From: Minisyncoccota bacterium | GTDB lineage: Bacteria > Patescibacteriota > Minisyncoccia > Phycocordibacterales > UBA9973 | Length of the DNA: 53,373 bases | Direction of reading: 5' to 3' | NCBI GenBank assembly: GCA_041666045.1 | Contig: JBAYHR010000005.1 | Span: forward strand, 1-53,373 | Shown: positions 1,659-52,574 of the stretch, piece by piece | Layout: every line of letters begins with the position of its first letter | Position numbering within the stretch: position 1 is the stretch's first letter | Position numbers and translations under genes: made by a program | Notes under the pieces: model-generated | The model's input: the letters and a program-made list of their open reading frames with translations, nothing else | What the model was told of the DNA's origin: nothing | Databases searched by the model: none

Positions 1659-4082
1659 CTATTTCGCTTCACCTAAATTATTTCCACACCCAAAATGCAC
1701 TGAAAGAGGAATATCGGTCTTAAAATGCAAATATGACCTTTCTAAGACGCTTTCCATGGCATTTTCTATTATTTTTTCAGCTTGTTTAATAACATCTTCT
1801 TCTATTTCATAAACCAATTCATCGTGTATTTGGAGAACCAAGTGTACTTTTGACAATAAACCTGCTTTTTCTAAATCTTCATGAGCATAACGAATAGCAA
1901 GCTTAATAAGATCTGCGGCCGTCCCCTGTACAGGAGCATTTGTAGCTGTACGCTCTGCCATATTTTTCAAAAATGGAATTCTTGATTTTATATTTGGAAA
2001 ATATCTTTTTCTACCAAATAAAGTTTCACTATATGTATTTTGGACAGCAAAATCTTTTACACTTTCTAAATAATCTCGCACTCCAGAAAATTGATTGAAA
2101 TAATTATCATAAAACTTTTGAGCTTCTTCACGAGTTCCTCCTAAGTTTTTCTTCAAACTAGAAACTCCCATTCCATAAATAATTCCAAAATTTATAACTT
2201 TAGCCCTGCGACGCATTTCATTATCAACTTTTTCTATTGGTACATTAAAAACAAAAGATGCTACACCAGCATGAATATCTTTTTTTTCACGAAAAATTTG
2301 TGTCATTTTTTTATCACCTGAAAGCATTGCTACGACTCGAAGCTCAATCTGACTATAATCAAATGCTGACAATTTGTATCCTTTCTGCGCTACAAATCCT
2401 CCTCTGATTCTTCTCCCTAATTCTGATTTAATTGGCAAGTTTTGTAAATTTGGGTCTTGAGAAGAAAATCTTCCTGTCGTCGTACCGTTTTGCAAAAACT
2501 TCGCATGTAATCTGCCATCATCACTAACCATTTTAGGAATCACATCGATGTAAGTAGAAAGAAGTTTTTGTAATTCTCTATGAGCCATTATTTCTTTTAT
2601 TATCGGATTACCTTCTTCAAGCTCTTCAAGAACTGAAATTTTTGTAGAAAAAGATCCACTCGCATTTTTTTTCTTACTTGATTTCATCCCCATCTTATCA
2701 AAAAGAACTTCTCCTAATTGCTTTGGAGAGTTTATATTAAACTCTGTTCCAGCCATTTCATATATTTTTTTAGTAATTTTATCTAATTCTTTATGATATT
2801 CTTTTGATAAATCTTCAAAATATTTTTTATCTATAAGGATTCCACGGTCTTCCATAGCTTTCACTATATGAATGATAGGTTTTTCAACTTCTTCAAAAAC
2901 AAGAGTTAGTTTTTCATCTTTCAATTTATTTAAAATATATTCTTCTGCTGTTTTAAAAGAGCTTGTTTTTGCATACAATAAAATATCATCAAGTGTTGGA
3001 CTCGTCATATCTGAATTTATAAGCCATAAAGCAATAGATGTTTGTTGTAATTGGTCTGGATCTACCAAGGAAGAATTATCTCCAGAAAGCGAGTTCAGAG
3101 AATTTTCGAGCTGGTCTGGACCCAAGCCGAGGACCCGAGAAAATTCTTCTGAACTCGCTTTCTGACTATTCTCAAAAAAACCTCTTAAACGTGAAAACAA
3201 ACTTCTAAATTCAAATTCAGAAAAAATTTGTTCAACTTTTTTCAAATCTGCATTTTCCCAAAAAGTTTTTTCTGGTAAAACAAAATTTATTGGAGCATCA
3301 GTTCTAATCGTTGCCAAGGTTTTTGAAAACAAAGCTTCTTCTTCGTTTTCTTTTACAAGATTAATTATTCTTTCTTTTATACCAGCTTTTTTAAAAGATT
3401 CAGGATCTTTTTTTATTTTTTTATAAATATCTTCAATCGTTCCAAAATTTACTATTAAATCTGTAGCTGTTTTTTCTCCTATCCCCTTAATACCAATAAT
3501 ATTATCTGATGGATCCCCTCTCAATCCTTTGTAGTCTGGTAAAAGTTTTGGCCCAAAACCAAAACGCGCCACAACCGCATCTTCGTCATATAAAATCGTA
3601 TCATTAATTCCTTTCTTTAATGTATAAACTTGAACTTTTTTATCATCCACTAATTGCATCGTATCCATATCTCCAGATGCAATAATTATTTTAATATTTT
3701 TATCTTTTTTAAATTGTTCAGCTATTGTTCCGAGCAAATCGTCAGCTTCAAAACCTGGTGAATCATAAACTGGGATATTAAATGCTTCAAAAATTTTTCT
3801 AGAATTTTTTAATTGAAATATTAAAGCATCATCCGCTTTTGCTCTACCTGCTTTGTAAGCTTCATACGCTTCATGTCGAAAAGTCTTTTGTGGAAGATCA
3901 TAACAAGCCACAATATAGTCTGGTTTTAAATCAGTAATAATCTTCATTAACATTGAAGAAAGACCATACAATGCGCCAGTTGGTTCTCCTTTTGACGATA
4001 AAAACTCAGGCAAGGCATGATAAGCGCGATGTATTATCGCATGAGAATCTAGCAACACTAGAAGTTTTGTTTTATCTTTCAT
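1659..4082 (-). CDS. polA: DNA polymerase I
   Basis: 807 aa. N-terminal 5-prime nuclease domain, and family A polymerase motifs DYSQIELRV, RRRAKVINFGIIYG and QIHDELV. The short linker leaves no full proofreading domain. Carries the GC-rich insertion at 3084-3164. Confidence 0.92.
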   Translation of the reverse strand: MKDKTKLLVLLDSHAIIHRAYHALPEFLSSKGEPTGALYGLSSMLMKIITDLKPDYIVACYDLPQKTFRHEAYEAYKAGRAKADDALIFQLKNSRKIFEAFNIPVYDSPGFEADDLLGTIAEQFKKDKNIKIIIASGDMDTMQLVDDKKVQVYTLKKGINDTILYDEDAVVARFGFGPKLLPDYKGLRGDPSDNIIGIKGIGEKTATDLIVNFGTIEDIYKKIKKDPESFKKAGIKERIINLVKENEEEALFSKTLATIRTDAPINFVLPEKTFWENADLKKVEQIFSEFEFRSLFSRLRGFFENSQKASSEEFSRVLGLGPDQLENSLNSLSGDNSSLVDPDQLQQTSIALWLINSDMTSPTLDDILLYAKTSSFKTAEEYILNKLKDEKLTLVFEEVEKPIIHIVKAMEDRGILIDKKYFEDLSKEYHKELDKITKKIYEMAGTEFNINSPKQLGEVLFDKMGMKSSKKKNASGSFSTKISVLEELEEGNPIIKEIMAHRELQKLLSTYIDVIPKMVSDDGRLHAKFLQNGTTTGRFSSQDPNLQNLPIKSELGRRIRGGFVAQKGYKLSAFDYSQIELRVVAMLSGDKKMTQIFREKKDIHAGVASFVFNVPIEKVDNEMRRRAKVINFGIIYGMGVSSLKKNLGGTREEAQKFYDNYFNQFSGVRDYLESVKDFAVQNTYSETLFGRKRYFPNIKSRIPFLKNMAERTATNAPVQGTAADLIKLAIRYAHEDLEKAGLLSKVHLVLQIHDELVYEIEEDVIKQAEKIIENAMESVLERSYLHFKTDIPLSVHFGCGNNLGEAK
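3084..3164 (-). repeat. 81-nt GC-rich palindromic insertion element, in frame in polA
   Basis: Arms cagaaagcgagttcagagaattttc / gaaaattcttctgaactcgctttctg flank the core gagctggtctggacccaagccgaggacccga. The core is homologous to the cca element at 50197-50282. Confidence 0.7.
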
Positions 4083-6301: not shown

Positions 6302-6348
6302 AAACCCAAATTTATAATTTGAGTTTTTAAAAATTAGAAACTAAAAAA

Positions 6349-6491
6349 GCATTAATCTCCAAACAATCCTTTTAGGGCTATGCCCCGAAAGTAATAAATT
6401 CTTGAAGGATAGCACCAGCGAACTAATAAAAGTGCCAGAACGTCCTACGCAAACTTATATAACCAATGGCTGATTGCTTAGAGATTAATGC
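6349..6491. ncRNA. candidate structured RNA or palindromic element of unknown class
   Basis: A 20-nt closing inverted repeat, gcattaatctccaaacaatc / gattgcttagagattaatgc (2 mismatches), encloses about 100 nt with at least two internal hairpins (ctttTAgggcTATgcccCGaaag; ggatagcac...gtgcc...gtcc). It sits in a 319-nt intergenic gap. No SRP, 6S, RNase P or tmRNA signature was recognised. Confidence 0.3.
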
Positions 6492-6620
6492 TCTCTAAAA
6501 AATAAAACAAGGTCTTAAACCTCTTGTATTAAGTATACTATATTCCCGACGAATCAAATGGTATAATGTGGATACTGTGTTGATAATGTACTTAGCATAG
6601 TCTAGCATATAATAAAATCA

Positions 6621-8126: not shown

Positions 8127-8666
8127 ATGTCAGGACATAATAAATGGGCGCAAATAAAACACAAAAAAGCGATTACTGATTCAAAGAAAAGTAAAATCTT
8201 TTCTAAACTTGTACGTTTTATATCAGTTGAAGCAAAATTAGCAAAAGGCGATCTTAATGCACCAGGACTTCGCGCTTCAATAGAAAAAGCAAAAAAAGTA
8301 AATATGCCTAAAGATATTATTGAAAAAGCTGTCAAAAAAGCTTCTGAGCCTTCAGCTCAAATGGATTCAATCACTTATGAAGCATACGGTCCAGGAGGAG
8401 TGGCTATAATAATAGAAACACTTACTGATAGTAGAAATAGAACAGCGCAAGATATAAAACATATTCTTTCTAAAAATGGATTTGCTCTTTCTAGTATAGG
8501 TGGAGCCGTTTGGGCTTTTTCTAGAGAACAAACGCCTGAAGGTATCGTTTATAATCCAACTACCACTGTCCCCCTTTCTGACGAAGATTTAGAATTATTA
8601 GATAAATTAGTTGATGACTTAGAAGAAAATGATAATATCCAAGATATATATACTAATGCAGAATAA
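8127..8666 (+). CDS. yebC: YebC/PmpR family DNA-binding regulator (short form)
   Basis: N-terminus MSGHNKWAQIKHKKA is the family signature. At 179 aa it is shorter than the usual protein of about 240 aa. Confidence 0.85.
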   Translation: MSGHNKWAQIKHKKAITDSKKSKIFSKLVRFISVEAKLAKGDLNAPGLRASIEKAKKVNMPKDIIEKAVKKASEPSAQMDSITYEAYGPGGVAIIIETLTDSRNRTAQDIKHILSKNGFALSSIGGAVWAFSREQTPEGIVYNPTTTVPLSDEDLELLDKLVDDLEENDNIQDIYTNAE

Positions 8667-8691
8667 AAAAATAAATTACGAATTAGAAAAA

Positions 8692-8712
8692 TACCAAGGG
8701 TTTCCCTTGGTA
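8692..8712. repeat. REP-like palindrome copy 1 (TACCAAGGG-TTT-CCCTTGGTA)
   Basis: Perfect 9-bp stem, followed by TTTT. Lies between the convergent yebC and ORF 8731-9330, so it may double as a terminator. Confidence 0.75.
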
Positions 8713-8730
8713 TTTTAAAAATCAATAGAA

Positions 8731-9330
8731 TTATTTAGTAAAGCGAAAACTATTATAAAATGCTTCAAAATCTGAAGTCTCCTGAGCGTCATTGCTAATA
8801 ATATAAAGTGCACCATTTCGCTTTATATAAACCATTTTAGATGCCCAATTATAAGGTTCTTTGTTGGGAGTAAACGTTACAAGTAATGCCGACATGCCAT
8901 TTATGTTTATATCTTCCTTTATCTCTTTACCATCAATCTCACTTGCTGTAGTTTTCAAGATTTGTGGAAGTTCTGCTTCTTTGTAACCCACACTAACCTC
9001 CCACATGTATCCTCCTTTTTTGGCATAGTATCCACTTTCATTTTTATCTAAAAGGATACCAAAAATAGCACAATTATTTTCAGAAACCCAACCCTTATTG
9101 CTTGGATATTTTATACTATAACCATTCATTGTGTTTGTACAAGTTGCCCAATCTGCTGTTTTGTCTAGAGTTTGCGTTGTGGTTGGAATAGACGTTTGTG
9201 GTAAATTGTTTACCAAAGTATTTTTTTCTTTCTGTTTTGAATTATTTAAGAAAAAATAACCTAACCCTACAACTAATAAAATTATTATAATAACCAACAA
9301 AATCGTATTTAATTTTGATTTGTTTTCCAT
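8731..9330 (-). CDS. hypothetical membrane-anchored / secreted protein
   Basis: 199 aa with an N-terminal TM anchor (LNTILLVIIIILLVVGLGYFF). No family recognised. Bracketed by REP copies 1 and 2. Confidence 0.5.
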   Translation of the reverse strand: MENKSKLNTILLVIIIILLVVGLGYFFLNNSKQKEKNTLVNNLPQTSIPTTTQTLDKTADWATCTNTMNGYSIKYPSNKGWVSENNCAIFGILLDKNESGYYAKKGGYMWEVSVGYKEAELPQILKTTASEIDGKEIKEDININGMSALLVTFTPNKEPYNWASKMVYIKRNGALYIISNDAQETSDFEAFYNSFRFTK

Positions 9331-9379
9331 ATTTTAATTATATCATGAATTCAGATAATATGGATTGCTACCAAGTTGC

Positions 9380-9400
9380 TACCAAGGGGAACCCTTGGTA
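9380..9400. repeat. REP-like palindrome copy 2 (TACCAAGGG-GAA-CCCTTGGTA)
   Basis: Perfect 9-bp stem. Its loop GAA is the reverse complement of the copy 3 loop TTC, so it is inverted relative to copy 3. A partial extra half-site, gctaccaagtt, lies at 9367-9377. Confidence 0.75.
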
Positions 9401-9410
9401 TAATGTATAA

Positions 9411-10067
9411 ATGGAAAGAAAAGAAAACTTTATACAAGGAGAATTGTATCATATTTATAATCGTGGAGTGGAAAAACGAATAATATTTCAAGGTGTTTCA
9501 GATTATAAAAGATTTTTAGCACTTTTATATATAGCCAATAGTGAAAATACTGTACAACTTCGTAATGATTTTTTAAAAACAAATTCACTTGATGAAATTT
9601 TTGAAAAAGATCGTGGCAAACAACTTGTAGCTATAGGCGCTTATTGTTTAATGCCAAATCATTTTCATCTACTTCTTACTCCCCTAATAGACGGGGGAAT
9701 ATCAAAATTTATGCTCAAACTTCAAACTGGCTATTCAATGTATTTTAATAAAAAAAATGACAGAGTTGGTGCTTTATTTCAAGGAATATTTAAATCACAA
9801 CATATATCTGATGATATATATTTAAAATATATTTATGCTTACATCCATCTTAATCCAGCAAAATTAAAAAATTCTAATTGGAAAACACAATCAAAAAGTT
9901 TTTTAAATCAATTAAAAAACTTTATCGCTGAATATTCTTATTCCAGCCTAAAAGAATATATTTTGAACAAATTTAAAATAATAAATCCTAAACCCTTTCC
10001 TGTTGATAAAAAAGATATCTCAAATTACAATTCCATTGTAGATGATTTTAGTGAGGGTATTTACTAA
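9411..10067 (+). CDS. IS200/IS605-like Y1 (HUH) transposase, REP-associated tyrosine transposase (RAYT)-like
   Basis: 218 aa. HUH motif in CLMPNHFHLLL and the catalytic Tyr region YIYAYIHLNPA. Confidence 0.75.
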   Translation: MERKENFIQGELYHIYNRGVEKRIIFQGVSDYKRFLALLYIANSENTVQLRNDFLKTNSLDEIFEKDRGKQLVAIGAYCLMPNHFHLLLTPLIDGGISKFMLKLQTGYSMYFNKKNDRVGALFQGIFKSQHISDDIYLKYIYAYIHLNPAKLKNSNWKTQSKSFLNQLKNFIAEYSYSSLKEYILNKFKIINPKPFPVDKKDISNYNSIVDDFSEGIY

Positions 10068-10096
10068 GATACCAAGGGTTCCCCTTGGTATCTTAG
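10064..10096. repeat. REP-like palindrome copy 3 (ctaagaTACCAAGGG-TTC-CCCTTGGTAtcttag)
   Basis: 15-bp perfect stem, overlapping the stop codon of the transposase gene. Confidence 0.75.
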
Positions 10097-10691: not shown

Positions 10692-10745
10692 CCTGCCCGC
10701 AATGCTTTCATTGCATAGCTAATGCAGGCGGGGGTCGTTTTTAGA
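10692..10745 (+). terminator. GC-rich structured element followed by a T-run (possible ruvC terminator)
   Basis: In cctgcccgcaatgctttcattgcatagctaatgcaggcggggg, cctgc pairs with gcagg and encloses the hairpin gcaatg-cttt-cattgc. It is followed by tcgttttt. Confidence 0.3.
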
Positions 10746-17932: not shown

Positions 17933-18295
17933 ATGCTTCCTAAAAAAAATAGAGCCAACAAAAAGGCAATAGATCAAATCTTTCAAAAAGGTAGGTTTTT
18001 TAGTTCTAGTAATTTAACTTTTAAATTTATTTTAAATAAAAACACAAATCAACCAATGATTTCTTTCATTGTTCCTAAAACTGTTGTAAAAAAGGCAATT
18101 GTACGTAATTTATTAAGAAGACGCGGTTATGCTGTTTTAGAAAAGTATATAAAAGATTTCCCTGTTAGTATGGTAGGGGCTTTTATTTTTGGTAAAAAAA
18201 GTCTTGAAGTTTTTGGAAAGAGAAAAAATAAAAATTATAATCCAATTTTAAATCTTAAAAATGAAATTAAAATCATTATTAATAAAATTCATTAA
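17933..18295 (+). CDS. rnpA: RNase P protein component
   Basis: 120 aa, basic, starts MLPKKNRANKK..., in the conserved rpmH-rnpA-yidD-yidC order. Confidence 0.8.
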   Translation: MLPKKNRANKKAIDQIFQKGRFFSSSNLTFKFILNKNTNQPMISFIVPKTVVKKAIVRNLLRRRGYAVLEKYIKDFPVSMVGAFIFGKKSLEVFGKRKNKNYNPILNLKNEIKIIINKIH

Positions 18296-18551
18296 TCCCG
18301 TTAGAAGCAGGTCGCCCCAAGGTGACCGTAGCACTCACTTTTTAGTGAGGGCGGCTTCTAACGGGATTAATTTCTACCAACGTTTTTTGAGTCCACTAAA
18401 GAAACCGAGTTGTGTTTTTTATCCTTCTTGTTCAGAGTATTCAAAACAAGCAATAAATAAATATGGTGTTTTAAAAGGTTTTAAACTTTCTTTTCTTCGT
18501 ATTATTCGTTGCCATCCTTGGCAAAAAAATCATATTGACCCCGTTAAATAA
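18261..18551 (+). CDS. yidD: membrane protein insertion efficiency factor YidD, with a 27-codon palindromic insertion near the N-terminus
   Basis: Core FYQRFLSP...CVFYPSCSEYSKQAI...RIIRCHPW is the YidD signature. Removing 18291-18371 gives a normal N-terminus of the form MKLKSLLIKFIN-FYQRF. Confidence 0.75.
   Translation: MKLKSLLIKFINPVRSRSPQGDRSTHFLVRAASNGINFYQRFLSPLKKPSCVFYPSCSEYSKQAINKYGVLKGFKLSFLRIIRCHPWQKNHIDPVK
18291..18371. repeat. 81-nt GC-rich palindromic insertion element, in frame in yidD and overlapping the rnpA stop
   Basis: Perfect 18-nt arms attaatcccgttagaagc / gcttctaacgggattaat. The core has two sub-hairpins (ggtcgcc..ggtgacc and ctcac..gtgag). The arms resemble those of murI insertion 1. 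Confidence 0.7.
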
Positions 18552-18629
18552 AAACTTAATTATAAATTTTTTCTAGTAAGCAAAATGAACCTAGTAGTCA
18601 CAGGCGAAAAGCTTTATAATTAAGTTTTT
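18550..18629. repeat. 80-nt hairpin element between yidD and yidC (possible terminator)
   Basis: Perfect 17-nt arms aaaaacttaattataaa / tttataattaagttttt. The core ends in caggcgaaaa, the same 10-mer found in the 48281 element. Confidence 0.55.
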
Positions 18630-18671: not shown

Positions 18672-19427
18672 ATGTTAACTCAAATTTGGGATGTTGCATT
18701 ATATAAGCCACTTGTTAATGCTTTGGCGTTTTTAGTTTCCGTTGTTCCGGGTGGGGACATTGGTATTGCTGTTATAATTCTTACTTTATTAGTTAAAACT
18801 GCTTTATATCCATTATCGCAACGTTCTATTGAAAGTCAGGCTAAAATGAATCTTCTTTCTCCAGAGCTTAAAAAAATTAAAGCAAGCGGAGCAAGTAAAG
18901 AAGAACAAGCAAAACAAACGATGGAACTTTATAAAAAACACAAAACAAACCCTTTTTCTGGGTGTCTTTTGGTTTTAATACAAATTCCTATTATTTTTGC
19001 TTTATATTATGTTTTTTATAAAGGAATAAATTTTGATAGTGGAATTCTTTATTCTTTTGTCCATATTCCAGATAATATAAATATGAATTTTCTTGGGCTT
19101 ATTGATATTGGTAAAAAAAGTCTAATTTTAGCCATATTGGCTGGTTTATCACAGTTTTTTCAAGCATATTATATGCCTAAACCAGCTGTTTCTTCTGATA
19201 AGGGTGGTGGTTTTGCAGAAAGTTTTGGTAAGAGTATGAATATGCAAATGAAATACATTTTCCCTTTTGTAGTTACTTTTATTGCGTATAGTATTTCTGG
19301 CGCTATTGCATTATATTGGATTACAAGTAATGTTTTTGCCATAGGTCAGCAAATTCATGCCAAAAAGAAGAAATTTAGTATTATAGTTCATGGCCACAAA
19401 TTAGAAACACAAGCAGAAAAGAAGTAG
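18672..19427 (+). CDS. yidC: membrane protein insertase YidC (short, Gram-positive type)
   Basis: 251 aa, polytopic, with motifs such as LYPLSQRS and NPFSGCLLVLIQIPI. Confidence 0.9.
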   Translation: MLTQIWDVALYKPLVNALAFLVSVVPGGDIGIAVIILTLLVKTALYPLSQRSIESQAKMNLLSPELKKIKASGASKEEQAKQTMELYKKHKTNPFSGCLLVLIQIPIIFALYYVFYKGINFDSGILYSFVHIPDNINMNFLGLIDIGKKSLILAILAGLSQFFQAYYMPKPAVSSDKGGGFAESFGKSMNMQMKYIFPFVVTFIAYSISGAIALYWITSNVFAIGQQIHAKKKKFSIIVHGHKLETQAEKK

Positions 19428-19956: not shown

Positions 19957-21306
19957 TTATTTTAAGTTAAGTTTCCAAAGATAAGAATCTTTTTTGTTTA
20001 CAAAAAATAGATAATTTTCACCTTCATCTAATGTAAGTTTTATAGTATCTATATCTTCTCCCCCATTAGTTGAGACCATATCTGAAATTATGGTTGTCCT
20101 TCCATCTGAAATATTTATTTTCCAAAGTTCATCTGAAAAAGAAGTTTCTCCCATATACCATGAGTCTGGATATTCTTTTGTTTCAATAAATTTAGGTACA
20201 GCGCAATATATTACGTCACTTGTTTTGTTCCAAACACACTTTTCTGGCAAAGTTTGTATTCCAAGCGTATTAATTTCTCTTGTATTTACATTATAAACAC
20301 TAAGAGATAAATTATTGTTTCCATATAAAACTAGTTTTCCATCTGGGCTCATTAGTGTTGTGAGACCATTTATTCCACCTAATATTTTATTAAAATCTTT
20401 TCTGTCTGGATTTATTGCATACATATATCCTGGCACATTTGCAGACGGCTTGGATGTAAGAGTAATTATATTTTTATTTGGCCAAAATGATGTCCATTCT
20501 GTAAATGAAGAATCGAATACTTGAGATTTTTTATTAGTAAGTGGGTCTAATGTTATTCCGACGGTAGTATTCCCTGTGTTAAATAAATAAAAAATTTTTG
20601 AGCTATTAGGAGAAATACTTACATCTGTGACATTTTCTGGCAAAAATATCCCACTTATTTCATTGCCCCCTGTTGTGTCTGCGCCTAAAAATTCTTTTGG
20701 CAAACTTCCTATAAAGCTTTCTATTGTTATTCCATCAGATTTCAAATATCTCATTATCACAGATTCCCCACTGTTTGCCAAATATGATTCACGAACTGCT
20801 GGTATTATGGTTTCTGAGAATTTTCTTTCGTCTATTTTATCAGCGAAAGTTTGATAAATGTTTCCTGTTGCTCTATCCACATATCTTAAAGCTGGCACGA
20901 ATTCAGTCGGTGGTGGGGTAGGTTTAGTTGTTTCTGTTGTGGTTGATTGTGGTGAGCTTGTTAAATCTATTTGTTCTACTGGAATTACTGTTGGCACATC
21001 TTTAAATCTTTCTTTCATAAATATTCCATATCCAGCTATTGGCATACTGGAAACTTTATTTAATTTAACTATTGGCGTTTCTGTCGTTGAATTTAACTCA
21101 AACCCTGAAATATCAGCTGGAGGAATTGTGTCTGTTGTTTGTGTGGCTGGCTTGCTGGTTGGAAAAAATTGAGAAAAGAAGTTTGTGCCTGTTGTTGTTC
21201 CTGTTTGACCAACTGTTCCTGAATTAGAAAAATATAAATATCCAAAAGTAACAATTACTATTGTTACTAATGCTATTATTAAAAGTTTTAAATTTCTTTT
21301 TGACAT
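19957..21306 (-). CDS. membrane-anchored secreted protein with a PD40/TolB-like beta-propeller signature
   Basis: 449 aa. N-terminal TM anchor, a T/P-rich linker, and PD40-like motifs such as MSPDGKLVLYGNN. Confidence 0.4.
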   Translation of the reverse strand: MSKRNLKLLIIALVTIVIVTFGYLYFSNSGTVGQTGTTTGTNFFSQFFPTSKPATQTTDTIPPADISGFELNSTTETPIVKLNKVSSMPIAGYGIFMKERFKDVPTVIPVEQIDLTSSPQSTTTETTKPTPPPTEFVPALRYVDRATGNIYQTFADKIDERKFSETIIPAVRESYLANSGESVIMRYLKSDGITIESFIGSLPKEFLGADTTGGNEISGIFLPENVTDVSISPNSSKIFYLFNTGNTTVGITLDPLTNKKSQVFDSSFTEWTSFWPNKNIITLTSKPSANVPGYMYAINPDRKDFNKILGGINGLTTLMSPDGKLVLYGNNNLSLSVYNVNTREINTLGIQTLPEKCVWNKTSDVIYCAVPKFIETKEYPDSWYMGETSFSDELWKINISDGRTTIISDMVSTNGGEDIDTIKLTLDEGENYLFFVNKKDSYLWKLNLK

Positions 21307-21320
21307 AAAATTAAATATTT

Positions 21321-22694
21321 TTAGCTTCCATCATCAGACCAGTGCCATGATTCACTGGCTAAATTTTTTAAACCATATGTTTTTGCATTATTAGAAAGCC
21401 ATTTAAAACAAACACTATTTTTTCCACCTGATTTTTCCATACTTTGTCCATTGCATGTAAAATCAATTGCTTTTCCTGATTCATGTTTTGAGTGGCCAGG
21501 TCTAGCTGTTGGAGGTTTGCATGTATTAGATGGTGAAGTATATATATCTGGGCATTTATGTTTTTTTCTGAGGTCTATTTGTTGATCATAAGTTCTTGCT
21601 CCCCAACCAGAGAGTATAATATTTACTTTTTTAGCCGCAGCAAGCATTTTTTGTGAATTTTCAGAAATAGATTTACATACGTTTATTTTTGTTGGTGATC
21701 CATAGGTGGTAATGTTTGTGTATCCTTCCTTGCAAGTACCTGTTGGGCTTGTAAGATTTGATGTACCTTCCCATGGTGCTAATTCTGTTTCAGGATCTAT
21801 TGTTAATGTTGCTTGTTCTAGTTTACTTAATCCTACATTAAGCAGATCCGGATTTAAAGTATTTAATATTGCATAAGAGCCAAGCGCTAATATAAGTCCT
21901 AATATTGCATGTGTTATTCTTTCTTTTCCTTCATTTTTTCCTGAAACAAGTTCACTCGTCATATATTCTATTCCACCCATTACAATCATTATCATTGAAA
22001 GAACTGCTGCAATGCCGATGAATATTTGTATCATCATATTTAAATAACCAGCAAAGCCTGTTCCCGGCGTGCAACCTTTATCTGTTGGGCCACAAGGGAC
22101 GCAAGTTTCTACTCCACCCTCAGTCGTGCATTTTTGAGTGCCAAGTTTTATACAAGTAGTTTTTGGAGGATTTGAATTATCTTGTGTGCAATTGGTTTCC
22201 CCTACTCCTGGCAATGGAGCTAAAGGATAATAATTTTCCTCTGTTTTTGTATTATTCTCCGTTGTTGGAATTATTGTATTATAAATTATTACTGGTTTTG
22301 AATTTGATTCAGTGCCTGTAGTTTTTGAAAAAGTTGCTGTTTTGTCTCCTATTCGCACATTAACTTGATAAGAAACACCTTGAACTAAAGTATTTTTAGT
22401 ATTATAAACAGCTTGATTGTTTATTATTTTTTCTATTATTGATTCTTCTTCTGTTGTTTTTGCATCAATTGTTTTAAAAAGTTTTACACTGGCGGAAGTG
22501 TTGTCTGGAACGTTTGTTGTATTAATTGAAATTAACCATGACCATCGGTCTGTTTGTGTGTTTAAGTCTTCTTTTTCTAATTTTAATGTAAGTGTTGGAT
22601 CAGCCGCTAAGCTTGCAATAGGAAAAACTAAACTAACCAAAAATAGCGTTAAAAAAGAAAAACTTATTATTTTTTTTATTTTAGAAATTAACAT
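21321..22694 (-). CDS. fusion protein: secreted N-domain + T4SS-pilin-like (TrbC/VirB2-like) two-TM module + M15 (VanY-like) peptidase
   Basis: 457 aa. Signal peptide and a Cys-rich linker. The two-TM module is FAGYLNMMIQIFIGIAAVLSMIMIVMGGIEYMTS...AILGLILALGSYAILNTL. The C-terminus has HSKHESGKAIDF and SWHWSDDG, typical of zinc D-Ala-D-Ala carboxypeptidases. Confidence 0.5.
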   Translation of the reverse strand: MLISKIKKIISFSFLTLFLVSLVFPIASLAADPTLTLKLEKEDLNTQTDRWSWLISINTTNVPDNTSASVKLFKTIDAKTTEEESIIEKIINNQAVYNTKNTLVQGVSYQVNVRIGDKTATFSKTTGTESNSKPVIIYNTIIPTTENNTKTEENYYPLAPLPGVGETNCTQDNSNPPKTTCIKLGTQKCTTEGGVETCVPCGPTDKGCTPGTGFAGYLNMMIQIFIGIAAVLSMIMIVMGGIEYMTSELVSGKNEGKERITHAILGLILALGSYAILNTLNPDLLNVGLSKLEQATLTIDPETELAPWEGTSNLTSPTGTCKEGYTNITTYGSPTKINVCKSISENSQKMLAAAKKVNIILSGWGARTYDQQIDLRKKHKCPDIYTSPSNTCKPPTARPGHSKHESGKAIDFTCNGQSMEKSGGKNSVCFKWLSNNAKTYGLKNLASESWHWSDDGS

Positions 22695-26613: not shown

Positions 26614-27366
26614 CTACTCAGGCATTTCACGATATGGGTCTACTTTAACTGAAAAAGATGGTGAAGTGGAAGCTGTGGCGCCGGATGTTGGTTTTATTGT
26701 CGCTCCTAATGGAACTTTTACGCCAATATCTTTTGGACCTTCTGGTGTTTTGGAAGTTTTAGACATATTGTTTAGAGAATATTCTGTTTTTGTATTTGGT
26801 ATTTGGAAAGAACCGGAAAGTTTTTGCGCTGAGATTGATTGCATTATTTTTTTATTTTGCATTTCTTTTGCGATAAGTTCAGGATCTTCAATTTTTTTAA
26901 TCATTTCATCTCTTGAATCACCACTCCTCCCGTCCCCTCCTCCATAAGGCGGGGAAGCTTGCCCCCCCTCCTTTTCAAGGAGGGGGTTGGGGGTGGTAAT
27001 TTCTATCCCTGCGTTATTTAATATTTCATCGTCTTTTTTTTCTTCTTGTTTCCCATACAAAGACATTAATTTTTCTCTTATCTCTTTTAAGATTTTTTCA
27101 TTTACTTCATTTACTATTTTTTTGTTTTTATCATCTGGTAACTGCAGACTTCCTTTTACAGATGCTTCAAATTTGTCTGGATGAACAAAGCCAAACATAA
27201 CCATATGCGTTTCAAGAGATAATTGTCCCATTTGTTCCACAGTAAGATTATTTTCCTTGCCTATTTCTGTGATTTTTTCATCAACATTTACAGCCATAAT
27301 CGCCCATCTTAAATCTTCTGGTAAACTCTCAAACTTTTTTTGTATTTCTTCTAATGTTATTTCCAT
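26614..27366 (-). CDS. hypothetical protein carrying a GC-rich repeat insertion
   Basis: 250 aa. Helical N-domain and a low-complexity C-terminal half. The segment TTPNPLLEKEGGQASPPYGGGDGRSGDS is encoded by the repeat at 26921-26997. Confidence 0.5.
   Translation of the reverse strand: MEITLEEIQKKFESLPEDLRWAIMAVNVDEKITEIGKENNLTVEQMGQLSLETHMVMFGFVHPDKFEASVKGSLQLPDDKNKKIVNEVNEKILKEIREKLMSLYGKQEEKKDDEILNNAGIEITTPNPLLEKEGGQASPPYGGGDGRSGDSRDEMIKKIEDPELIAKEMQNKKIMQSISAQKLSGSFQIPNTKTEYSLNNMSKTSKTPEGPKDIGVKVPLGATIKPTSGATASTSPSFSVKVDPYREMPE
26921..26997. repeat. GC-rich hairpin repeat (about two tandem units), in frame
   Basis: cccctcc-tccataa-ggcgggg, then aagcttg, then ccccccctcc-ttttcaa-ggaggggg-ttgggggtgg. 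Same architecture as 36630-36667. Confidence 0.65.
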
Positions 27367-36457: not shown

Positions 36458-37251
36458 TTTTTAGCAATATTTATCCAGTTTAAAAGCGATAAATCTTCTG
36501 CTCTTTTGTTTCCTAAATCTTGCGTTAGGTCTTGCCTAACGCATTTTTTTAAATTTGATGAAAGCTTTTTGCGTTTATGAGCAAAACCAGCGTGAATTAT
36601 TTCCCAGAATTTCTCTTCATTAATATATTCCCCCTCTCCTTTATAAGGAGAGGGTTGGGGTGAGGTGAAAAGTTTTCTTGAGATATTTTTTATTGCTATT
36701 ATTGCAGAATCAACTTTTGGCGCTGGTGAAAAATATCGCGCGGGTACCTTCATTATCATTTTTGGTTCTCCGTAGGCTTTTACAGAAACAGAAAGAATAC
36801 TTTCTTTTTTATCGTTTGCAATTATTCTTTTTGCAACTTCATGTTGAACCATCAACACCATAGTATTTGGTTGGTTTTTTTCTGTGAGAAATTTTTTTAA
36901 AATTGCTCCTGTTATATTATAAGGAATATTTGCTATTATTTTATAGTCTTGCTCAAAAATAATTTGCTTAATATTAAATTTTAAAATATCATCTTCTGCT
37001 AAAATTAATTTTTTATTTTCTATTTCTTTTTTAAATTTTTCTTGCAATAATTGAAAAAGATTACGATCTTTTTCAACAGCTATTACACAATTGGATTTTT
37101 CCAAGAGTTTTTCTGTAAGTACTCCTTTCCCGGGACCAATTTCTAAAATAATATCATCTGATAAAATTTCTCCAGCTTCAATTATTTTTTTAAGGGCAAT
37201 ATTAGATTTTAAAAAATTCTGCCCTAATGATTTTTTTGCTTTATGTATCAT
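36454..37251 (-). CDS. rsmA: 16S rRNA (adenine1518/1519-N6) dimethyltransferase RsmA/KsgA
   Basis: 265 aa with KSLGQNFL, EIGPGKGVLT and NIPYNIT. Carries the insertion TSPQPSPYKGEGEY. Confidence 0.9.
   Translation of the reverse strand: MIHKAKKSLGQNFLKSNIALKKIIEAGEILSDDIILEIGPGKGVLTEKLLEKSNCVIAVEKDRNLFQLLQEKFKKEIENKKLILAEDDILKFNIKQIIFEQDYKIIANIPYNITGAILKKFLTEKNQPNTMVLMVQHEVAKRIIANDKKESILSVSVKAYGEPKMIMKVPARYFSPAPKVDSAIIAIKNISRKLFTSPQPSPYKGEGEYINEEKFWEIIHAGFAHKRKKLSSNLKKCVRQDLTQDLGNKRAEDLSLLNWINIAKN
36630..36667. repeat. GC-rich hairpin repeat, in frame in rsmA
   Basis: ccccctctcc-tttataa-ggagaggg-ttggggtgaggtg. Same family as 26961-26997. Confidence 0.65.
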
Positions 37252-39266
37252 ATATAAATTGTTTTAATTTGATCTCCCTCCCCTTCTTTTTCTAAAATAT
37301 CAGCTGGAATATCCGCAATAAATTCTGATGGAGCATTTATTTGTCTTGATCCGAATATTGTACGGAAGTTTGCAAATGATAAAAATAATTTTTCTTTTGC
37401 GCGAGTAAGTGCTACATAAAAAAGTCTGCGTTCTTCTTCAGCGTCTTCTGTCTTATTGTCTTTTTGATGAGGGAAGAGTCCGTATTCTAATCCTGTTATA
37501 AAAACATATTTGAATTCTAATCCTTTTGATGCATGTACTGTCATTAGTTTAACAGCGTTTACTTTTTCCTTCTTCTCCCCACCGTCTATTAATGAATCTT
37601 GATCTGATGCAAGCGACGCATCTTCTAGAAGTTTTTCTATTCCAGTTCCGTCTTCTAGGTAGTCATATTTTAATGCTAAAGTTGCTAATTCCTTTATATT
37701 TTCAAGCCTTTCTAGGTCTTCTTCTGTCCCAGTGGAAAGCTCAGTTTCAATACCAGATTTTTTAACCGTGAATTTTATTACCTCAGAAGCTTTAGAATTT
37801 TTAATTTTTTCTTTTATTTCTTCTAATGTATTATAAAAATTATTAATTTTTAATTGCATTTTTATTGGCAAAGTTTCTCTTTCTCCGGAAAAAATTTTAG
37901 CAAGAGTTGTTTTCCCTATTCCTCTCGTTGGGAAATTTATTATTCTTTTTATGTCAGATAAACTTTCAGGATTTAATGCTGCGCGTAAATATGCGAGCGT
38001 ATCTTTTATTTCTTTTCTTTCAAAAAATTTAATACCAAGTACTTGATATGGGATATTATATCGAAGCATTGCTTCTTCTAATACCCGAGATTGGAAATTT
38101 GCGCGGTATAAAATTGCAATCTCAGATAGATCTGAGGATTTATTTTGGAGGGGTGTCTCGCAGATTGACGAGTCGAGAGGCAGCGCTGAGCGAGCACACT
38201 CAGACAGCGACCCATCCAAAATAGAATCCTCAGGTCTATCTTGAATCTCTAAAATTTTTGTTGCTACGAATTCTGCTTCATCGTTTTCATCCAATGCTTC
38301 ATATAGAGATATTTTTTCTCCTATTTCATTTTTTGTGAAAAGATTTTTGTCAGGTCGGTATTTATTTTTTTTTATTACTTCATTCGCTGCTTCGAGAATG
38401 TTTTGAGTTGAACGATAATTTTCTTCAAGAAGAATAATTTTTGCATTTGGATAATCTTTTTCAAAGTTTAATATATTTTTTAGATTTGCTCCACGCCAAG
38501 AATAAATATTTTGATCGGCATCTCCAACAACACAAATATTTTTATTGTTTTCAGAAAGTAAACGAGACATTAAATACTGCACCTCGTTTGTGTCTTGATA
38601 CTCGTCTATGTGAATGTATTTCCATTTTTCTTGATATATTTTTCTTATTTTCTCATTTTCTTTTAATAATTTTGTCGCTTTTAAAAGTAAATCATCAAAA
38701 TCTAATGAATTTTCTTTCATTTTTCTCTTTTCATAAATATTCCAAACTTGGGCAACAATTTTTCCTAAATAATCAACAGATTTTTCTGCATAATCAGATA
38801 GATGTGTGAATTTTCCTTTTTCTCGGCTGATTATATTTTTTATTTTTTTAGGCTCATATTGTTTTGGGTCTAAATTTAGCTCTTTTATAGTTTCTTTTAT
38901 TATTGAAATTGAATCTGATTCGTCTAAAATAGTAAAATATCTTGTTAATCCTAGTATTTTTGCATTTTCTTTTATTATATGGACACCAAGAGAGTGAAAT
39001 GTTGATACGAAAGGGATGGTATTTTGTCCTTTAGCGCTTTTTTCTATTTCTGAAATTATACGTTCACGCATTTCTTTTGCGGCTTTATTTGTGAAGGTTA
39101 CAGCTAAAATATTATCTGGAGAAATACCATTTTTTATTAAATTTATTATTCTGTGCGTTATTGTTTTTGTCTTTCCTGCGCCAGCTCCAGCAACAATAAG
39201 AAGCGGGCCTTCTATATGGCTGGCAGCTTCTTTTTGTGCACTATTTAATCCTTTTAAATGCTCCAT
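37248..39266 (-). CDS. ATP-dependent DNA helicase UvrD/PcrA
   Basis: 672 aa with AGAGAGKTKTITHRI, IHIDEYQDTN and VHASKGLEF. Carries an insertion of about 39 aa. Confidence 0.9.
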   Translation of the reverse strand: MEHLKGLNSAQKEAASHIEGPLLIVAGAGAGKTKTITHRIINLIKNGISPDNILAVTFTNKAAKEMRERIISEIEKSAKGQNTIPFVSTFHSLGVHIIKENAKILGLTRYFTILDESDSISIIKETIKELNLDPKQYEPKKIKNIISREKGKFTHLSDYAEKSVDYLGKIVAQVWNIYEKRKMKENSLDFDDLLLKATKLLKENEKIRKIYQEKWKYIHIDEYQDTNEVQYLMSRLLSENNKNICVVGDADQNIYSWRGANLKNILNFEKDYPNAKIILLEENYRSTQNILEAANEVIKKNKYRPDKNLFTKNEIGEKISLYEALDENDEAEFVATKILEIQDRPEDSILDGSLSECARSALPLDSSICETPLQNKSSDLSEIAILYRANFQSRVLEEAMLRYNIPYQVLGIKFFERKEIKDTLAYLRAALNPESLSDIKRIINFPTRGIGKTTLAKIFSGERETLPIKMQLKINNFYNTLEEIKEKIKNSKASEVIKFTVKKSGIETELSTGTEEDLERLENIKELATLALKYDYLEDGTGIEKLLEDASLASDQDSLIDGGEKKEKVNAVKLMTVHASKGLEFKYVFITGLEYGLFPHQKDNKTEDAEEERRLFYVALTRAKEKLFLSFANFRTIFGSRQINAPSEFIADIPADILEKEGEGDQIKTIYI
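38124..38241. repeat. about 118-nt GC-rich palindromic insertion element, in frame in uvrD
   Basis: Arms of about 32 nt, agatagatctgaggatttattttggaggggt / acccatccaaaatagaatcctcaggtctatct (2 mismatches, 1 indel). The GC-rich core has sub-hairpins (ctgag..ctcag). Confidence 0.65.
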
Positions 39267-49234: not shown

Positions 49235-49305
49235 GCGGTCATGGTTTAGTGGTAGAACACGTCCTTGCCAAGGATGAGACGGGAGTTCGATTCTCCCTGG
49301 CCGCA
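49235..49305 (+). tRNA. tRNA-Gly (anticodon GCC)
   Basis: Folded by hand. Acceptor GCGGTCA/TGGCCGC, anticodon loop TTGCCAA, T-arm GGGAG-TTCGATT-CTCCC. 71 nt, with no encoded CCA. Confidence 0.9.
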
Positions 49306-49314
49306 CAAAATTTA

Positions 49315-50877
49315 GTGAATACACTAGAAAAAAATTTAATAAACAAAATTCCTCAAGAAGTTTCACATGTAACTGAAACCTTAGAAAAGGCTGGTTTTGA
49401 GGTGTATTTAGTTGGGGGATGTGTCCGTGATCTTTTAATGGATAAAGAGCCAAAAGACTGGGATATAACTACAAACGCAAAACCAGATCAGATTATAGGA
49501 CTTTTTGAAAAGACAGTTTATGAGAATATTTTTGGAACAGTAGCTATTATAAATAAAGATGTTTCACAAGAAACATTACGCCAAATAGAGGTTACTCCAT
49601 ATAGAATTGAGACAAAATATAGTGATTTTAGACACCCTGATGAAGTTAAATTTAGTGATAAGCTAGAAGATGACCTTAAGAGACGTGATTTTACAGTGAA
49701 TGCTGTGGCTTTAAGCTCTAAAGGACATCTAGTTGATTTATTTAATGGCATAAAGGACATTGAAAGTAAAACATTAAACACAGTGGGAGATCCAAATGAT
49801 CGTTTTAACGAAGATGCTTTACGAATGCTTCGGGCAGTACGCTTCGCTGTACAATTAGATTTTTCTGTGTCGTATGAAGTTTCTGAAAATATTATAAAAA
49901 ACTCAAGTTTAATTAAAAAAATTTCAGAAGAAAGAATTCGTGATGAATTTATAAAAATAATTATGTCACAAAATCCATCAATAGGAATTGTGATGTTGAA
50001 TAAATTTAATTTATTAAAAAATATAATTCCAGAATTAGAAGAAGGAATAAATTGCGAACAATCTGGTGAACATATTTATGATGTTTGGAATCATTTACTT
50101 CATGCATTACAACATTCAGCAGACAAAAATTGGCCTTTAGAAATAAGACTTTCTTCGCTTTTTCATGATATTGGTAAACCTAAGTCTAGAAGAATAGCAA
50201 TACGGGATAATAATTTTTCAGGTCCTCGGTTCTCCGGGTCCCTATCCCGGCCAGACCATGAAAAATCATCATCCCGTATTGCCAAAAAGTTGTATACTTT
50301 TTATGGTCATGAAGTTGTGAGTGCAAGAATGACAAAAAAGATTTTAGAGAGATTAAAATTTCCTAAAAAAGAAATTGAGCTTGTGGATAAACTTGTTCGC
50401 AATCATATGTTTTTTTCTGACACAGAACAAATTACGCTTTCTGCGGTGCGAAGAATTATTACAAAAGTCGGGAAAGAAAATATTTGGTCTCTTATGAATG
50501 TCCGTGAATGTGATAGAGTAGGAATGAAAAAGAAAGAAGCACCATATCGTTTGAGGAAATATTTTGCAATGATAGAGGAAGCATTACACGATCCTATCTC
50601 TGTTGGACAGCTTAAAATTGATGGAGAATTTATGATAAAGGACATCGGAATTAAGCCGGGACCTAGAATGGGCTGGATTTTGCATGCTCTTTTAGAAGAA
50701 ATTCTTGAAGATCCTTTAAAAAATACCATTGAGTATTTAAAGGACAAGGTTATTAACCTTGATAAACTTACTGATGCTAAATTAAAGATATTGGGAGAAA
50801 AGGGAAAAGAAAAAAAAGAAGACCTAGAAGAGGAAGAAGTTTTAAAACTTCATCAAAGACATGGTGTTCATAAATAA
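49315..50877 (+). CDS. cca: CCA-adding enzyme / tRNA nucleotidyltransferase with HD domain
   Basis: YLVGGCVRDLLM, DWDITT, RRDFTVNA and HD motif LFHDIGKP. The track ORF start (49249) overlaps tRNA-Gly, so the start is placed at the first in-frame GTG after the tRNA (49315). Carries an insertion of about 28 aa inside the HD domain. Confidence 0.85.
   Translation: MNTLEKNLINKIPQEVSHVTETLEKAGFEVYLVGGCVRDLLMDKEPKDWDITTNAKPDQIIGLFEKTVYENIFGTVAIINKDVSQETLRQIEVTPYRIETKYSDFRHPDEVKFSDKLEDDLKRRDFTVNAVALSSKGHLVDLFNGIKDIESKTLNTVGDPNDRFNEDALRMLRAVRFAVQLDFSVSYEVSENIIKNSSLIKKISEERIRDEFIKIIMSQNPSIGIVMLNKFNLLKNIIPELEEGINCEQSGEHIYDVWNHLLHALQHSADKNWPLEIRLSSLFHDIGKPKSRRIAIRDNNFSGPRFSGSLSRPDHEKSSSRIAKKLYTFYGHEVVSARMTKKILERLKFPKKEIELVDKLVRNHMFFSDTEQITLSAVRRIITKVGKENIWSLMNVRECDRVGMKKKEAPYRLRKYFAMIEEALHDPISVGQLKIDGEFMIKDIGIKPGPRMGWILHALLEEILEDPLKNTIEYLKDKVINLDKLTDAKLKILGEKGKEKKEDLEEEEVLKLHQRHGVHK
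50197..50282 (+). repeat. about 86-nt GC-rich palindromic insertion element, in frame in cca
   Basis: Perfect outer arms gcaatacgggat / atcccgtattgc and inner arms tttttcaggtc / gaccatgaaaaa. The core is ctcggttctccgggtccctatcccggcca. Confidence 0.7.
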
Positions 50878-51698: not shown

Positions 51699-52574
51699 AT
51701 GCGCATAGGAATTTTTGATTCAGGATTAGGGGGCTTAATTATTGCCAAAGCAATAAGGAAATTAATGCCAGAATATTACTATGTTTATCTTGGAGACACT
51801 AAAAGAGTGCCTTATGGGAATAGATCTCATGAGACAGTTTTTGAATTTACAAAACAAGCTGTTGATTATTTATTTAGAAAAGAAAATTGTGAAATTGTAA
51901 TTTTAGCTTGCAACACTGCTTCAGCGAGAGCGCTTAGAAGAATACAGCAAGAATATTTAGCAAAGAATTTTCCAGACAGAAAAGTGCTTGGAGTTTTGAT
52001 TCCAACAGCAGAAGAATGCGCTAAGTATAAAAGTGTAGGAATAATAGCCACAAATGGAACCGTTTTATCCAATACTTTTCTTGATGAAATAAAAAAGCTT
52101 TCTCAAAAAACAAAAGTTTTTCAAAATCCTGCGCCAATGCTTGTGTCTTTAGCAGAAGAAGGGGAGAAAGTTTTAGTAAAACCATTTATTGAAAAATATT
52201 TGAAACCATTTAAAGGAAAAAAAATACAAGCTTTAGCACTTGGTTGTACACATTATCCTTTTTATAAAAATGAAATTAGAAAGATTTTAGGAAAGAATCC
52301 CATTAGAGCCCGCGAGGGATCTAAAAGACCCTCTGCCTCTAACGGGGCAAGTATAAAGGTCATCTCTCAAGATGAAATAATTCCAAAGAAATTAAAAGAG
52401 TATTTTAAAAGACATCTAGAGGTAGAAAAATTATTGTCAAAAAAGCAAACCCCGAACCAGAGCAAAGCTCGGTACGGGGCAAGGATCCTCGTAACGGACA
52501 TCACAAAAAACGTAGAAAAATTAACCCAAAAATGGTTTGGAAAAGACGTTAAACCAGAATTAATAAGATTATAG
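51699..52574 (+). CDS. murI: glutamate racemase
   Basis: 291 aa with IGIFDSGLGGL, ILACNTAS and LGCTHYPF. Contains two GC-rich insertions. Confidence 0.9.
   Translation: MRIGIFDSGLGGLIIAKAIRKLMPEYYYVYLGDTKRVPYGNRSHETVFEFTKQAVDYLFRKENCEIVILACNTASARALRRIQQEYLAKNFPDRKVLGVLIPTAEECAKYKSVGIIATNGTVLSNTFLDEIKKLSQKTKVFQNPAPMLVSLAEEGEKVLVKPFIEKYLKPFKGKKIQALALGCTHYPFYKNEIRKILGKNPIRAREGSKRPSASNGASIKVISQDEIIPKKLKEYFKRHLEVEKLLSKKQTPNQSKARYGARILVTDITKNVEKLTQKWFGKDVKPELIRL
52298..52347. repeat. GC-rich hairpin insertion 1 in murI
   Basis: tcccattagagcc ... gcctctaacgggg with the inner hairpin gaggg-atctaaaaga-ccctc. The arms resemble the yidD element. Confidence 0.6.
52450..52479. repeat. GC-rich hairpin insertion 2 in murI
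   Basis: ccccgaaccagagc-aaa-gctcggtacgggg (imperfect), followed by caaggatcctcgtaacggac. Confidence 0.45.

Follow-up and report, generated by a model that had tools for sequence, protein, structure and literature searches.

The polA gene of a Minisyncoccota bacterium, carried on a 53,373-nt contig (JBAYHR010000005.1 of assembly GCA_041666045.1; this whole stretch, read on the forward strand, is called the window below), contains in frame a GC-rich palindrome, which is best described as an old, shortened, yet perfectly paired member of a family of hairpin DNA. The family, termed here family A, is previously undescribed and belongs to Nomurabacteria-like Paceibacteria of the candidate phyla radiation (CPR, or Patescibacteria). 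We consider it probable that the palindrome in polA belongs, as an old copy shortened in its interior, to a hairpin family that is mobile and non-autonomous. An earlier note, made from the sequence of the window alone, had proposed a selfish insertion like the palindromic elements of Rickettsia, and the likeness is borne out: there are relatives with an empty site, copies in other genes and in intergenic DNA, a reading frame that is kept and a position in a disordered linker. That the hairpins are selfish is something that we infer.

The host gene occupies positions 1659..4082 of the minus strand and encodes a protein of 807 aa with 5' nuclease and DNA_pol_A domains (Pfam). Within it, an inverted repeat of 24 nt (3083-3106 / 3141-3164) shows 88% ungapped complementarity, and once one base is allowed to bulge, 25 of 25 arm pairs are formed. 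The whole hairpin measures 83 nt (3083..3165, minus strand) and matches the covariance model described below with 82 bits over model positions 1-99. In the orientation of the element it consists of a 5' arm (3139..3165, minus strand; TCAGAAAGCGAGTTCAGAAGAATTTTC) coding for ..QKASSEEF, a conserved core (3113..3135, minus strand; GGTCCTCGGcttgggtCCAGACC, located by regular expression and alignment) coding for part of RVLGLGPDQ, and a 3' arm (3083..3107, minus strand; GAAAATTCTCTGAACTCGCTTTCTG) coding for ENSLNSLS. GC content rises to 0.60 at 3089-3158, in a window whose overall value is 0.30. Folded as single-stranded DNA, the polA coding strand reaches -27.6 kcal/mol versus -10.2 +/- 2.3 for shuffled sequences (z = -7.55), an energy matched by none of 200 shuffles, and the opposite strand folds equally well. 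The open reading frame (ORF) continues across the hairpin and reads ENSQKASSEEFSRVLGLGPDQLENSLNSLSGDN, the insert peptide including EEFSRVLGLGPDQLENSLNSLSG. The core of this copy is 23 nt long, compared with about 39 nt in the canonical element, which is to say that it is internally shortened. The edges of the insert can be placed only to within about 7 nt: part of the outermost CAGAAAG/CTTTCTG may be native, given that an empty allele of a close relative (locus L005) also has CTTTCTG, and the outermost pairs of the minimum-energy fold are uninformative for setting the boundaries of the element.

The earlier description of this place, as an in-frame GC-rich palindrome with arms of about 25 nt and one indel, 81 nt (3084-3164) or exactly 27 codons long and situated in the linker that joins the polymerase domain to the 5' nuclease domain, agrees with the fold, with the Pfam domains and with the continuous ORF. 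It had also named a degenerate partial copy at 3051-3062 (DPDQLQ), and this we do not retain: because element-free orthologues likewise have (V/I)DPxxLQ, these nucleotides belong to a native motif which opens the next PolA domain. The hairpin corresponds to PolA residues ~306-333. Mapping of the insert on a structural model, which the same note had suggested, places it in a segment of very low confidence; in an AlphaFold2 (AF2) model built from a 25-sequence alignment, with a mean predicted local distance difference test score (pLDDT) of 71, residues 304-338 have pLDDT < 50 and lie between helices 293-303 and 342-355. This predicted position is consistent with a tolerated, disordered linker between the domains.

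The second copy of family A in the window is found at 50194..50284 on the plus strand (65 bits), in the HD-domain loop of cca, where it is read as IAIRDNNFSGPRFSGSLSRPDHEKSSSRIAK, another frame of the same core. Its host ORF (49249..50877, plus strand) encodes a CCA-adding enzyme or poly(A) polymerase with an HD domain (PF01743, PF12627, PF01966 and PF13735), and the true start of cca lies downstream of the tRNA-Gly gene at 49235-49306. As had been noticed from the letters, the polA and cca hairpins have a common core, GGTCCTCGG..GGGTCC..AGACCA, each oriented as its host gene. The core 9-mer by itself is not significant (2 matches versus 0.94 expected, with at most one mismatch). Significance comes from the whole element, with 82 and 65 bits for the two copies, 25 bits for the next match in the window and dozens of copies in relatives. 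Scanning the window with the covariance model, filters switched off, returned exactly the two known copies. Of all Rfam 15 families, only four tRNAs reach the gathering threshold in the window, and searches of two copies by E-value gave hits at the level of chance.

Every copy of family A is a single long hairpin of 80-120 nt, composed of a conserved inner unit and outer arms that are merely complementary to each other. The inner unit has the form TTTTCTC[A/G]-GGTCCTCGG-(variable small hairpin)-CCAGACC-..TCGAAAA, and it is these inner ~60 nt that are conserved between copies. We gathered 43 distinct copies with a simple pattern and aligned them (alignment A3). GGTC, GG and AGACC are invariant in 43 of 43 copies, the inner arms TTTTCTC[A/G] and TCGAAAA are nearly invariant, and the internal small hairpin varies from 3 to 45 nt. 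The outer arms, about 15 nt each, differ at every site and in every species, their identity between copies being at chance level (0.52-0.61), yet stay complementary. With the structure specified by hand, 82.8% of arm cells in the 43 copies are paired compared with 63.8% after shuffling. The covariation score is 0.466 versus 0.146 for shuffled arms, was reached in none of 500 shuffles, and stays at or below 0.19 when the partners are slid by 1-3 columns. Single arm columns hold all four Watson-Crick pairs (CG 11, AU 10, GC 9, UA 9).

The search for further copies with a covariance model, as the earlier note had advised, was productive. The model (R1), built from the family A alignment, gave 52 matches in 1.44 Mb of related loci and the window. 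At least seven further copies were found in metagenome loci, mostly in intergenic DNA, and another in a nifS-like gene (so named by eye from its sequence), which brings the census to about 60 copies. The pattern used for metagenomes, CAGGTCCTCGGN{5,35}CCAGACC, proved too loose, and among the matches listed true copies are present in 6 of 80 loci. Applied to viral contigs, the same pattern yielded 90 matches, and none of the 80 loci fetched from these passes the model, so that this search gave no sign of phage carriage. Querying host proteins with a 50-aa concatenation of insert peptides returned no candidates.

The site in polA was followed through relatives of the host. PolA homologues with 76-91% identity come from metagenome-assembled genomes of Minisyncoccia, Paceibacterota and Nomurabacteria, all of the CPR. 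The linker was surveyed in an alignment and a tree of 120 Paceibacteria homologues, and 80 polA-centred loci from GTDB genomes (L006-L085) were fetched together with 6 from close relatives. Across the 120 homologues the interdomain linker is hypervariable and falls into a few recurring peptide types. The type of the window, ..EFSQVLGSPGPxTPARPFENSL.., is present in 38-41 homologues, and 17 have ..ESFGAGLAGVGDPENRGPEKTLL.., which is encoded by the reverse complement of family A DNA. An unrelated palindrome, family C, is read as ..RRSHSILEGQ..SGSSEYSSE.. in 22, and a further one, family D, as ..FLADKTKPVPAGEN.. in 7-10; the linker is short and free of any element in 13, and of other types in 19. 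Family A in forward and reverse orientation, families C and D and empty sites are interleaved on the PolA tree, and the window's own clade (at least 82% PolA identity) includes forward, reverse, D-type and empty alleles. Close relatives without the element (P0009-13 and locus L005) have PolA identity of 83-84%, and PolA orthologues at 57-70% identity have a short linker and no element. The suggestion of a lineage-specific insert can be kept in part: the site is indeed empty in close relatives, but the peptide is not private to this genome, since about half of the 120 PolA homologues have family A here in one orientation or the other. All the polA orthologues found, about 75, preserve the reading frame across the linker. 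Judged from these alignments, the polA segment is an insertion, at a hot spot with rapid turnover, rather than the product of a single recent event.

These comparisons bear directly on the idea that the segment is simply a native linker that turned palindromic on the spot, whether by chance or through a template-switch duplication, and is unrelated to the other loci. The outermost CTTTCTG of the empty allele in L005 speaks for it; however, the same core and inner arms recur in cca of the window and in about 60 copies elsewhere, and empty alleles lack the whole hairpin, so that we give this idea hardly any credence.

Beyond polA, family A has been found at one site in uvrA, two in uvrB, two in uvrC, in cca, in the nifS-like gene and at no fewer than seven intergenic places, and other genomes have empty alleles at polA, uvrA, both uvrB sites, both uvrC sites and cca. 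The empty allele of uvrA, IKIGDEEFIMSAKFAC ('IKIGDEEFIMS'), may be set against filled alleles of the form ..FG[29-30 aa]EEF..; the empty DNA is without the entire hairpin, outer arms included, and comparison of filled and empty DNA at this one site shows no direct repeat or target-site duplication. The same genic sites often hold other, unrelated palindrome families or family A in reverse orientation. In cca, among 120 homologues, 27-31 have family A in frame +0 (..SGPRFSGSLSxPDH..), 4 have it in frame +1 and 7 in reverse, 18-21 have family C and 12 are empty. Two notions of how the hairpins arise could be examined against these alleles. That the outer arms came from the flanks of the target by inverted duplication is rejected, given that empty alleles have no arms and that the arms at uvrC site 2 are entirely different between species. 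Insertion at the tip of existing hairpins finds no support in the two cases examined; in the uvrB of L057 and the cca of P0146, family A adjoins only one half of a family C element.

In its hosts the core is read in sense frames as FSQVLGSPG, SGPRFSGS or RSSV, and on the opposite strand as GLAGVGDPENRGPE. Because the same core is thus read in three frames and on both strands, it is conserved at the level of DNA or RNA and not at that of the peptide. In the genic copies the host frame is kept and free of stops in 46 of 46 cases, about three of the six frames being open, and the seven intergenic copies are open in about one frame each. The open host frames fit translation of the hairpin as additional loop residues, 27 of them in PolA. 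The alternative is a segment that is not translated, either because it is cut out of the mRNA or because ribosomes bypass it. It is brought to mind by the GC-rich 'byp' elements of yeast mitochondria, a mere resemblance that consists in a GC-rich hairpin within AT-rich coding sequence. We regard it as very improbable: the host frame is kept and stop-free in all 46 genic copies and in about 75 polA orthologues, intergenic copies are open in about one frame, and such a pattern is the one that results from selection on a translated insert.

Apart from whole-element presence and absence, the hairpins change in situ. An 83-nt version with a 23-nt core is common to the window, L001 (91% PolA identity) and L003 (89%), and L206 (87%) has the same shortened 83-nt version on the opposite polA strand. 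L206 has the same clade-specific 23-nt core, and its state is a core inverted between its arms rather than an insertion of its own. A comparison of the window with L001 shows 11 differences among 50 arm nucleotides; at four pairs both partners have changed, and pairing is preserved at each of the four. Fourfold-degenerate sites of polA differ at 39% between these two. The L003 copy is decaying, with 20 of 25 arm pairs left and a mutated core. Another kind of change is seen in L015, where copies in uvrA and uvrC (19019-19114 and 21274-21371) have a 62-nt inner unit 97% identical and unrelated outer arms; the uvrA arms of L015 resemble those of L019 uvrA, the core of which is of another subfamily and inverted. 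This looks like an exchange of inner units between hairpins of one genome. The copy in L057 uvrB has complete polA-type arms in the same reading frame, and whole hairpins are therefore copied between genes.

The inversion in L206 raises the question of an intragenic inverton, in which the arms would be recombination sites, the core would undergo programmed, reversible inversion and each population would hold two isoforms of the PolA linker. Such invertons have already been described (bioRxiv 10.1101/2023.03.11.532203), and family A is like them in that inverted repeats surround a short segment within the coding sequence, of frame-neutral length, that close relatives have one and the same truncated core in either orientation (window, L001 and L003 versus L206) and that the frame is kept while the peptide changes. 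The orientations of family A differ between genomes, however, and it is a dispersed repeat; the protein is identical in all three contigs recorded for this PolA, which hence have the same orientation, no recombinase gene adjoins polA in the window, and isoforms of a linker modelled as disordered would have no obvious consequence. The segment is only 23-39 bp long, a spacer very short for invertase synapsis. A programmed switch is accordingly improbable to us.

As a mobile hairpin family, family A can be pictured as follows. Whole hairpins come and go at a few permissive sites in conserved genes, as well as in intergenic DNA. The core may be the recognition site of an enzyme that acts in trans on single-stranded hairpin DNA; the obvious candidates, as yet unproven, are HUH/Y1 transposases, which these genomes commonly encode. 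Pairing of the arms could be kept by hairpin-templated correction or arm-to-arm conversion, by selection for mobility or by both, and complementarity of the arms would need no function at the level of the host. A templated-correction mechanism of this sort, quasipalindrome template switching, is known from E. coli (PMC7202029). Ectopic gene conversion would swap inner units among the hairpins of a genome. The hot spots would reflect purifying selection, an insert of 25-35 residues being tolerated only in disordered loops, to which local hopping or attraction to existing hairpins perhaps adds.

Several observations weigh against this explanation. No transposase could be tied to family A, and no recent identical copies were seen, so that transposition is deduced from the distribution of the copies. 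Copy number is low, with 2 in the 53-kb window, and the conserved unit gives way abruptly to the free arms. Arms differ by 12-22% between close relatives where fourfold sites differ by 34-44%, and the core is conserved across species with saturated neutral sites; slow arms and a conserved core would also fit a function for the host. Finally, in the polA-centred loci (L006-L085), 16 of 16 genic copies outside polA, at five sites, are in uvrA, uvrB or uvrC, which make up 10.7% of the DNA. Such confinement is not obviously predicted by random insertion followed by selection. In those loci uvrA, uvrB and uvrC adjoin polA, which they do not in the window, and local hopping is the simplest explanation, though permissive loops or a functional link may also be involved.

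One alternative is a host-beneficial structured element, with a hairpin and core bound by a host factor in mRNA or DNA, serving for example ribosome pausing at domain boundaries, mRNA stability or processing, or co-regulation of polA and uvrABC. It would account for the strong covariation, the invariant core, the slowly changing arms, the positions in domain linkers and loops and the uvrABC confinement. On the other hand, both orientations occur at one site and hence place different cores in the mRNA, presence and absence alternate in close relatives, unrelated palindromes take the same sites, copies lie also in cca, the nifS-like gene and intergenic DNA, the element decays in some lineages (L003), and orthologous genes work without it. 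We hold a benefit to the host to be unlikely. Its special form, a signal of a DNA-repair regulon, can be no more than a minority view given both orientations, the presence/absence polymorphism and copies outside repair genes.

Slightly less unlikely, in our estimate, is a new kind of mobile or recombining unit, namely a conserved core cassette of about 60 nt, or else a core that is a lineage-wide protein-binding signal within the coding regions of the repair genes polA and uvrABC. The cassette could move between coding hairpins that reside at their sites, flip within them and be homogenised among them, by way of single-stranded hairpin intermediates that template their own arms. Either would explain the boundary between core and arms, the covariation of the arms, the confinement to polA and uvrABC and the reuse of sites, which plain selfish insertion does not.

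The closest known system is that of the Rickettsia palindromic elements (RPEs), hairpins which, in the account of Ogata et al. 2000 given in PMC10969869, are inserted in frame and read through. As far as that account describes them, family A is like RPEs in being made of repeated hairpin elements, non-coding-capable, in a small AT-rich genome, in lying in frame in unrelated conserved genes and also between genes, in adding a peptide at positions compatible with the fold and in the coexistence of several families. The differences are that family A is 80-120 nt long, compared with about 100-150 bp, and that its copies do not resemble one another from end to end, conservation being limited to the inner ~60 nt and the outer arms being site-specific and covarying; moreover, the same sites hold either orientation, different frames or different families in different species, and in-situ inversion of the core is seen. 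The host lineage, Patescibacteria, is unrelated and a sequence relationship is not expected, the two being likened by behaviour only. By this analogy family A would be a counterpart of RPEs and not a member of them.

The palindromes of REP (repetitive extragenic palindromic)/REPIN-RAYT systems and those derived from IS200/IS605 elements resemble family A in having a hairpin unit with a conserved imperfect stem near the tip and no target-site duplication. REPs are 20-40 nt long, extragenic and marked by a conserved 5' tetranucleotide, whereas family A copies measure 80-120 nt and are mostly intragenic in the polA-centred loci, the few metagenome copies being mostly intergenic. A Y1/HUH transposase-like gene is present in the window at 9411-10067 (PF01797; the REP_Tyr_transpos model gives 42 bits, below its cutoff of 80), and the hairpin TACCAAGGGnnnCCCTTGGTA occurs three times around it (8692-8712, 9380-9400 and 10070-10090; 0 expected by chance). 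Homologues of this gene are found near polA in 7 other loci, including L208, where it is directly upstream of polA. In the latter, the gap between tsaE and polA holds an IS200-like Y1_Tnp gene (2023-2649) flanked by TACGGAGGCaacGCCTCCGTA hairpins; the tsaE-polA gap of L206 holds, directly upstream of polA, a diversity-generating retroelement with bAvd and reverse transcriptase (8619-9989). The hairpins flanking Y1 genes (TACCAAGGG.., TACGGAGGC..) bear no relation to the core of family A, and mobilisation of family A by the Y1 transposase of the window is an unproven lead.

Classical MITEs (miniature inverted-repeat transposable elements), such as ERIC, BOX, Correia and the cyanobacterial ones (PMC10969869), are likewise small and non-autonomous with inverted-repeat ends and occasional in-frame fusions; family A differs from them in that its 'terminal repeats' are not conserved between copies and that target-site duplication is absent at the one site compared. 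No parent insertion sequence with matching terminal inverted repeats was found in ~1.5 Mb of related DNA. Organelles provide other hairpin elements for comparison, among them the GC clusters of yeast. Like family A, coding palindromes of organelles are stable inverted repeats in AT-rich translated sequence, their arms complementary despite sequence change. [quoted passage not shown] Compared with the Nematomorpha case as there presented, family A consists of dispensable loop inserts, conserved at the nucleotide level, and of dispersed repeats. A full-text search of the literature gave no description of in-frame palindromic elements in CPR/Patescibacteria, although absence there is not proof. 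We ourselves know of no such description.

Further hairpins were noticed in the window. An 81-nt GC-rich perfect hairpin of a different family, with 18-nt arms ATTAATCCCGTTAGAAGC, lies in frame near the N-terminus of YidD (18291-18371) and is read as NPVRSRSPQGDRSTHFLVRAASNGI; the Pfam YidD match begins only after it. A gene for a UvrD-like helicase (ORF 37248-39266) contains in frame, in the stretch that separates its N- and C-terminal helicase domains, a nested palindrome rich in GC and some 118 nt long (38124-38241), which reads ..DRPEDSILDGSLSECARSALPLDSSICETPLQNKSSDLSE... GC-rich, hairpin-like islands in ORFs are found at 26904-27015, 36628-36669, 52297-52352 and 52440-52507. One of them codes for 'TPNPLLEKEGGQASPPYGGG' in an unassigned ORF of 250 aa, one for 'SPQPSPYKGEGE' near the C-terminus of RsmA/KsgA, and two lie in an Asp/Glu racemase gene; relatives have inserts of the same peptide types in uvrA, uvrB and cca.

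Hairpins between genes were seen as well. Those at 18550-18629 and at 7618-7705 of L208 have AT-rich arms of 24-28 nt ending ..TTTTC / GAAAA.. and a core of ~32 nt; their arm architecture is like that of family A, with which they do not share the core, and arms resembling these are present in a relative. Another, at 10692-10737 (CCTGCCCGCAATGC..GCAGGCGGGG), seems to be the DNA behind 'TPARNATHSDAGG'-type inserts, which are found at another PolA site in P0089, P0109 and P0113, a link that comes from reading of the peptide only. The 145 intergenic nucleotides at 6348-6492, between a gene for a T2SSE-type ATPase (named from orthologous loci) and ruvB, are closed by a 21-nt stem with 90% complementarity and have GC content above the surroundings; no Rfam family reaches its gathering score there, and the segment is perhaps an unannotated structured RNA.

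A large part of bacterial diversity belongs to CPR/Patescibacteria, whose proteins abound in lineage-specific inserts with no explanation so far. Among elements of the RPE kind, family A is best seen as a variant of distinctive structure, and it is part of a wider, multi-family phenomenon in this lineage. It suggests an origin for many of the inserts, with several families of GC-rich hairpins colonising the same disordered loops in polA, uvrABC and cca, which, if true, would have consequences for the annotation and the alignment of phylogenetic marker genes. These bacteria would then join Rickettsia as another case, independent and far more diverse, in which selfish palindromes add peptide to conserved and probably essential proteins. 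They would also offer a natural system in which to follow the persistence of long hairpins in coding DNA, including concerted evolution of the arms, core inversion and core exchange, and the conserved core would predict a hairpin-recognising enzyme in organisms that have not yet been grown on their own.

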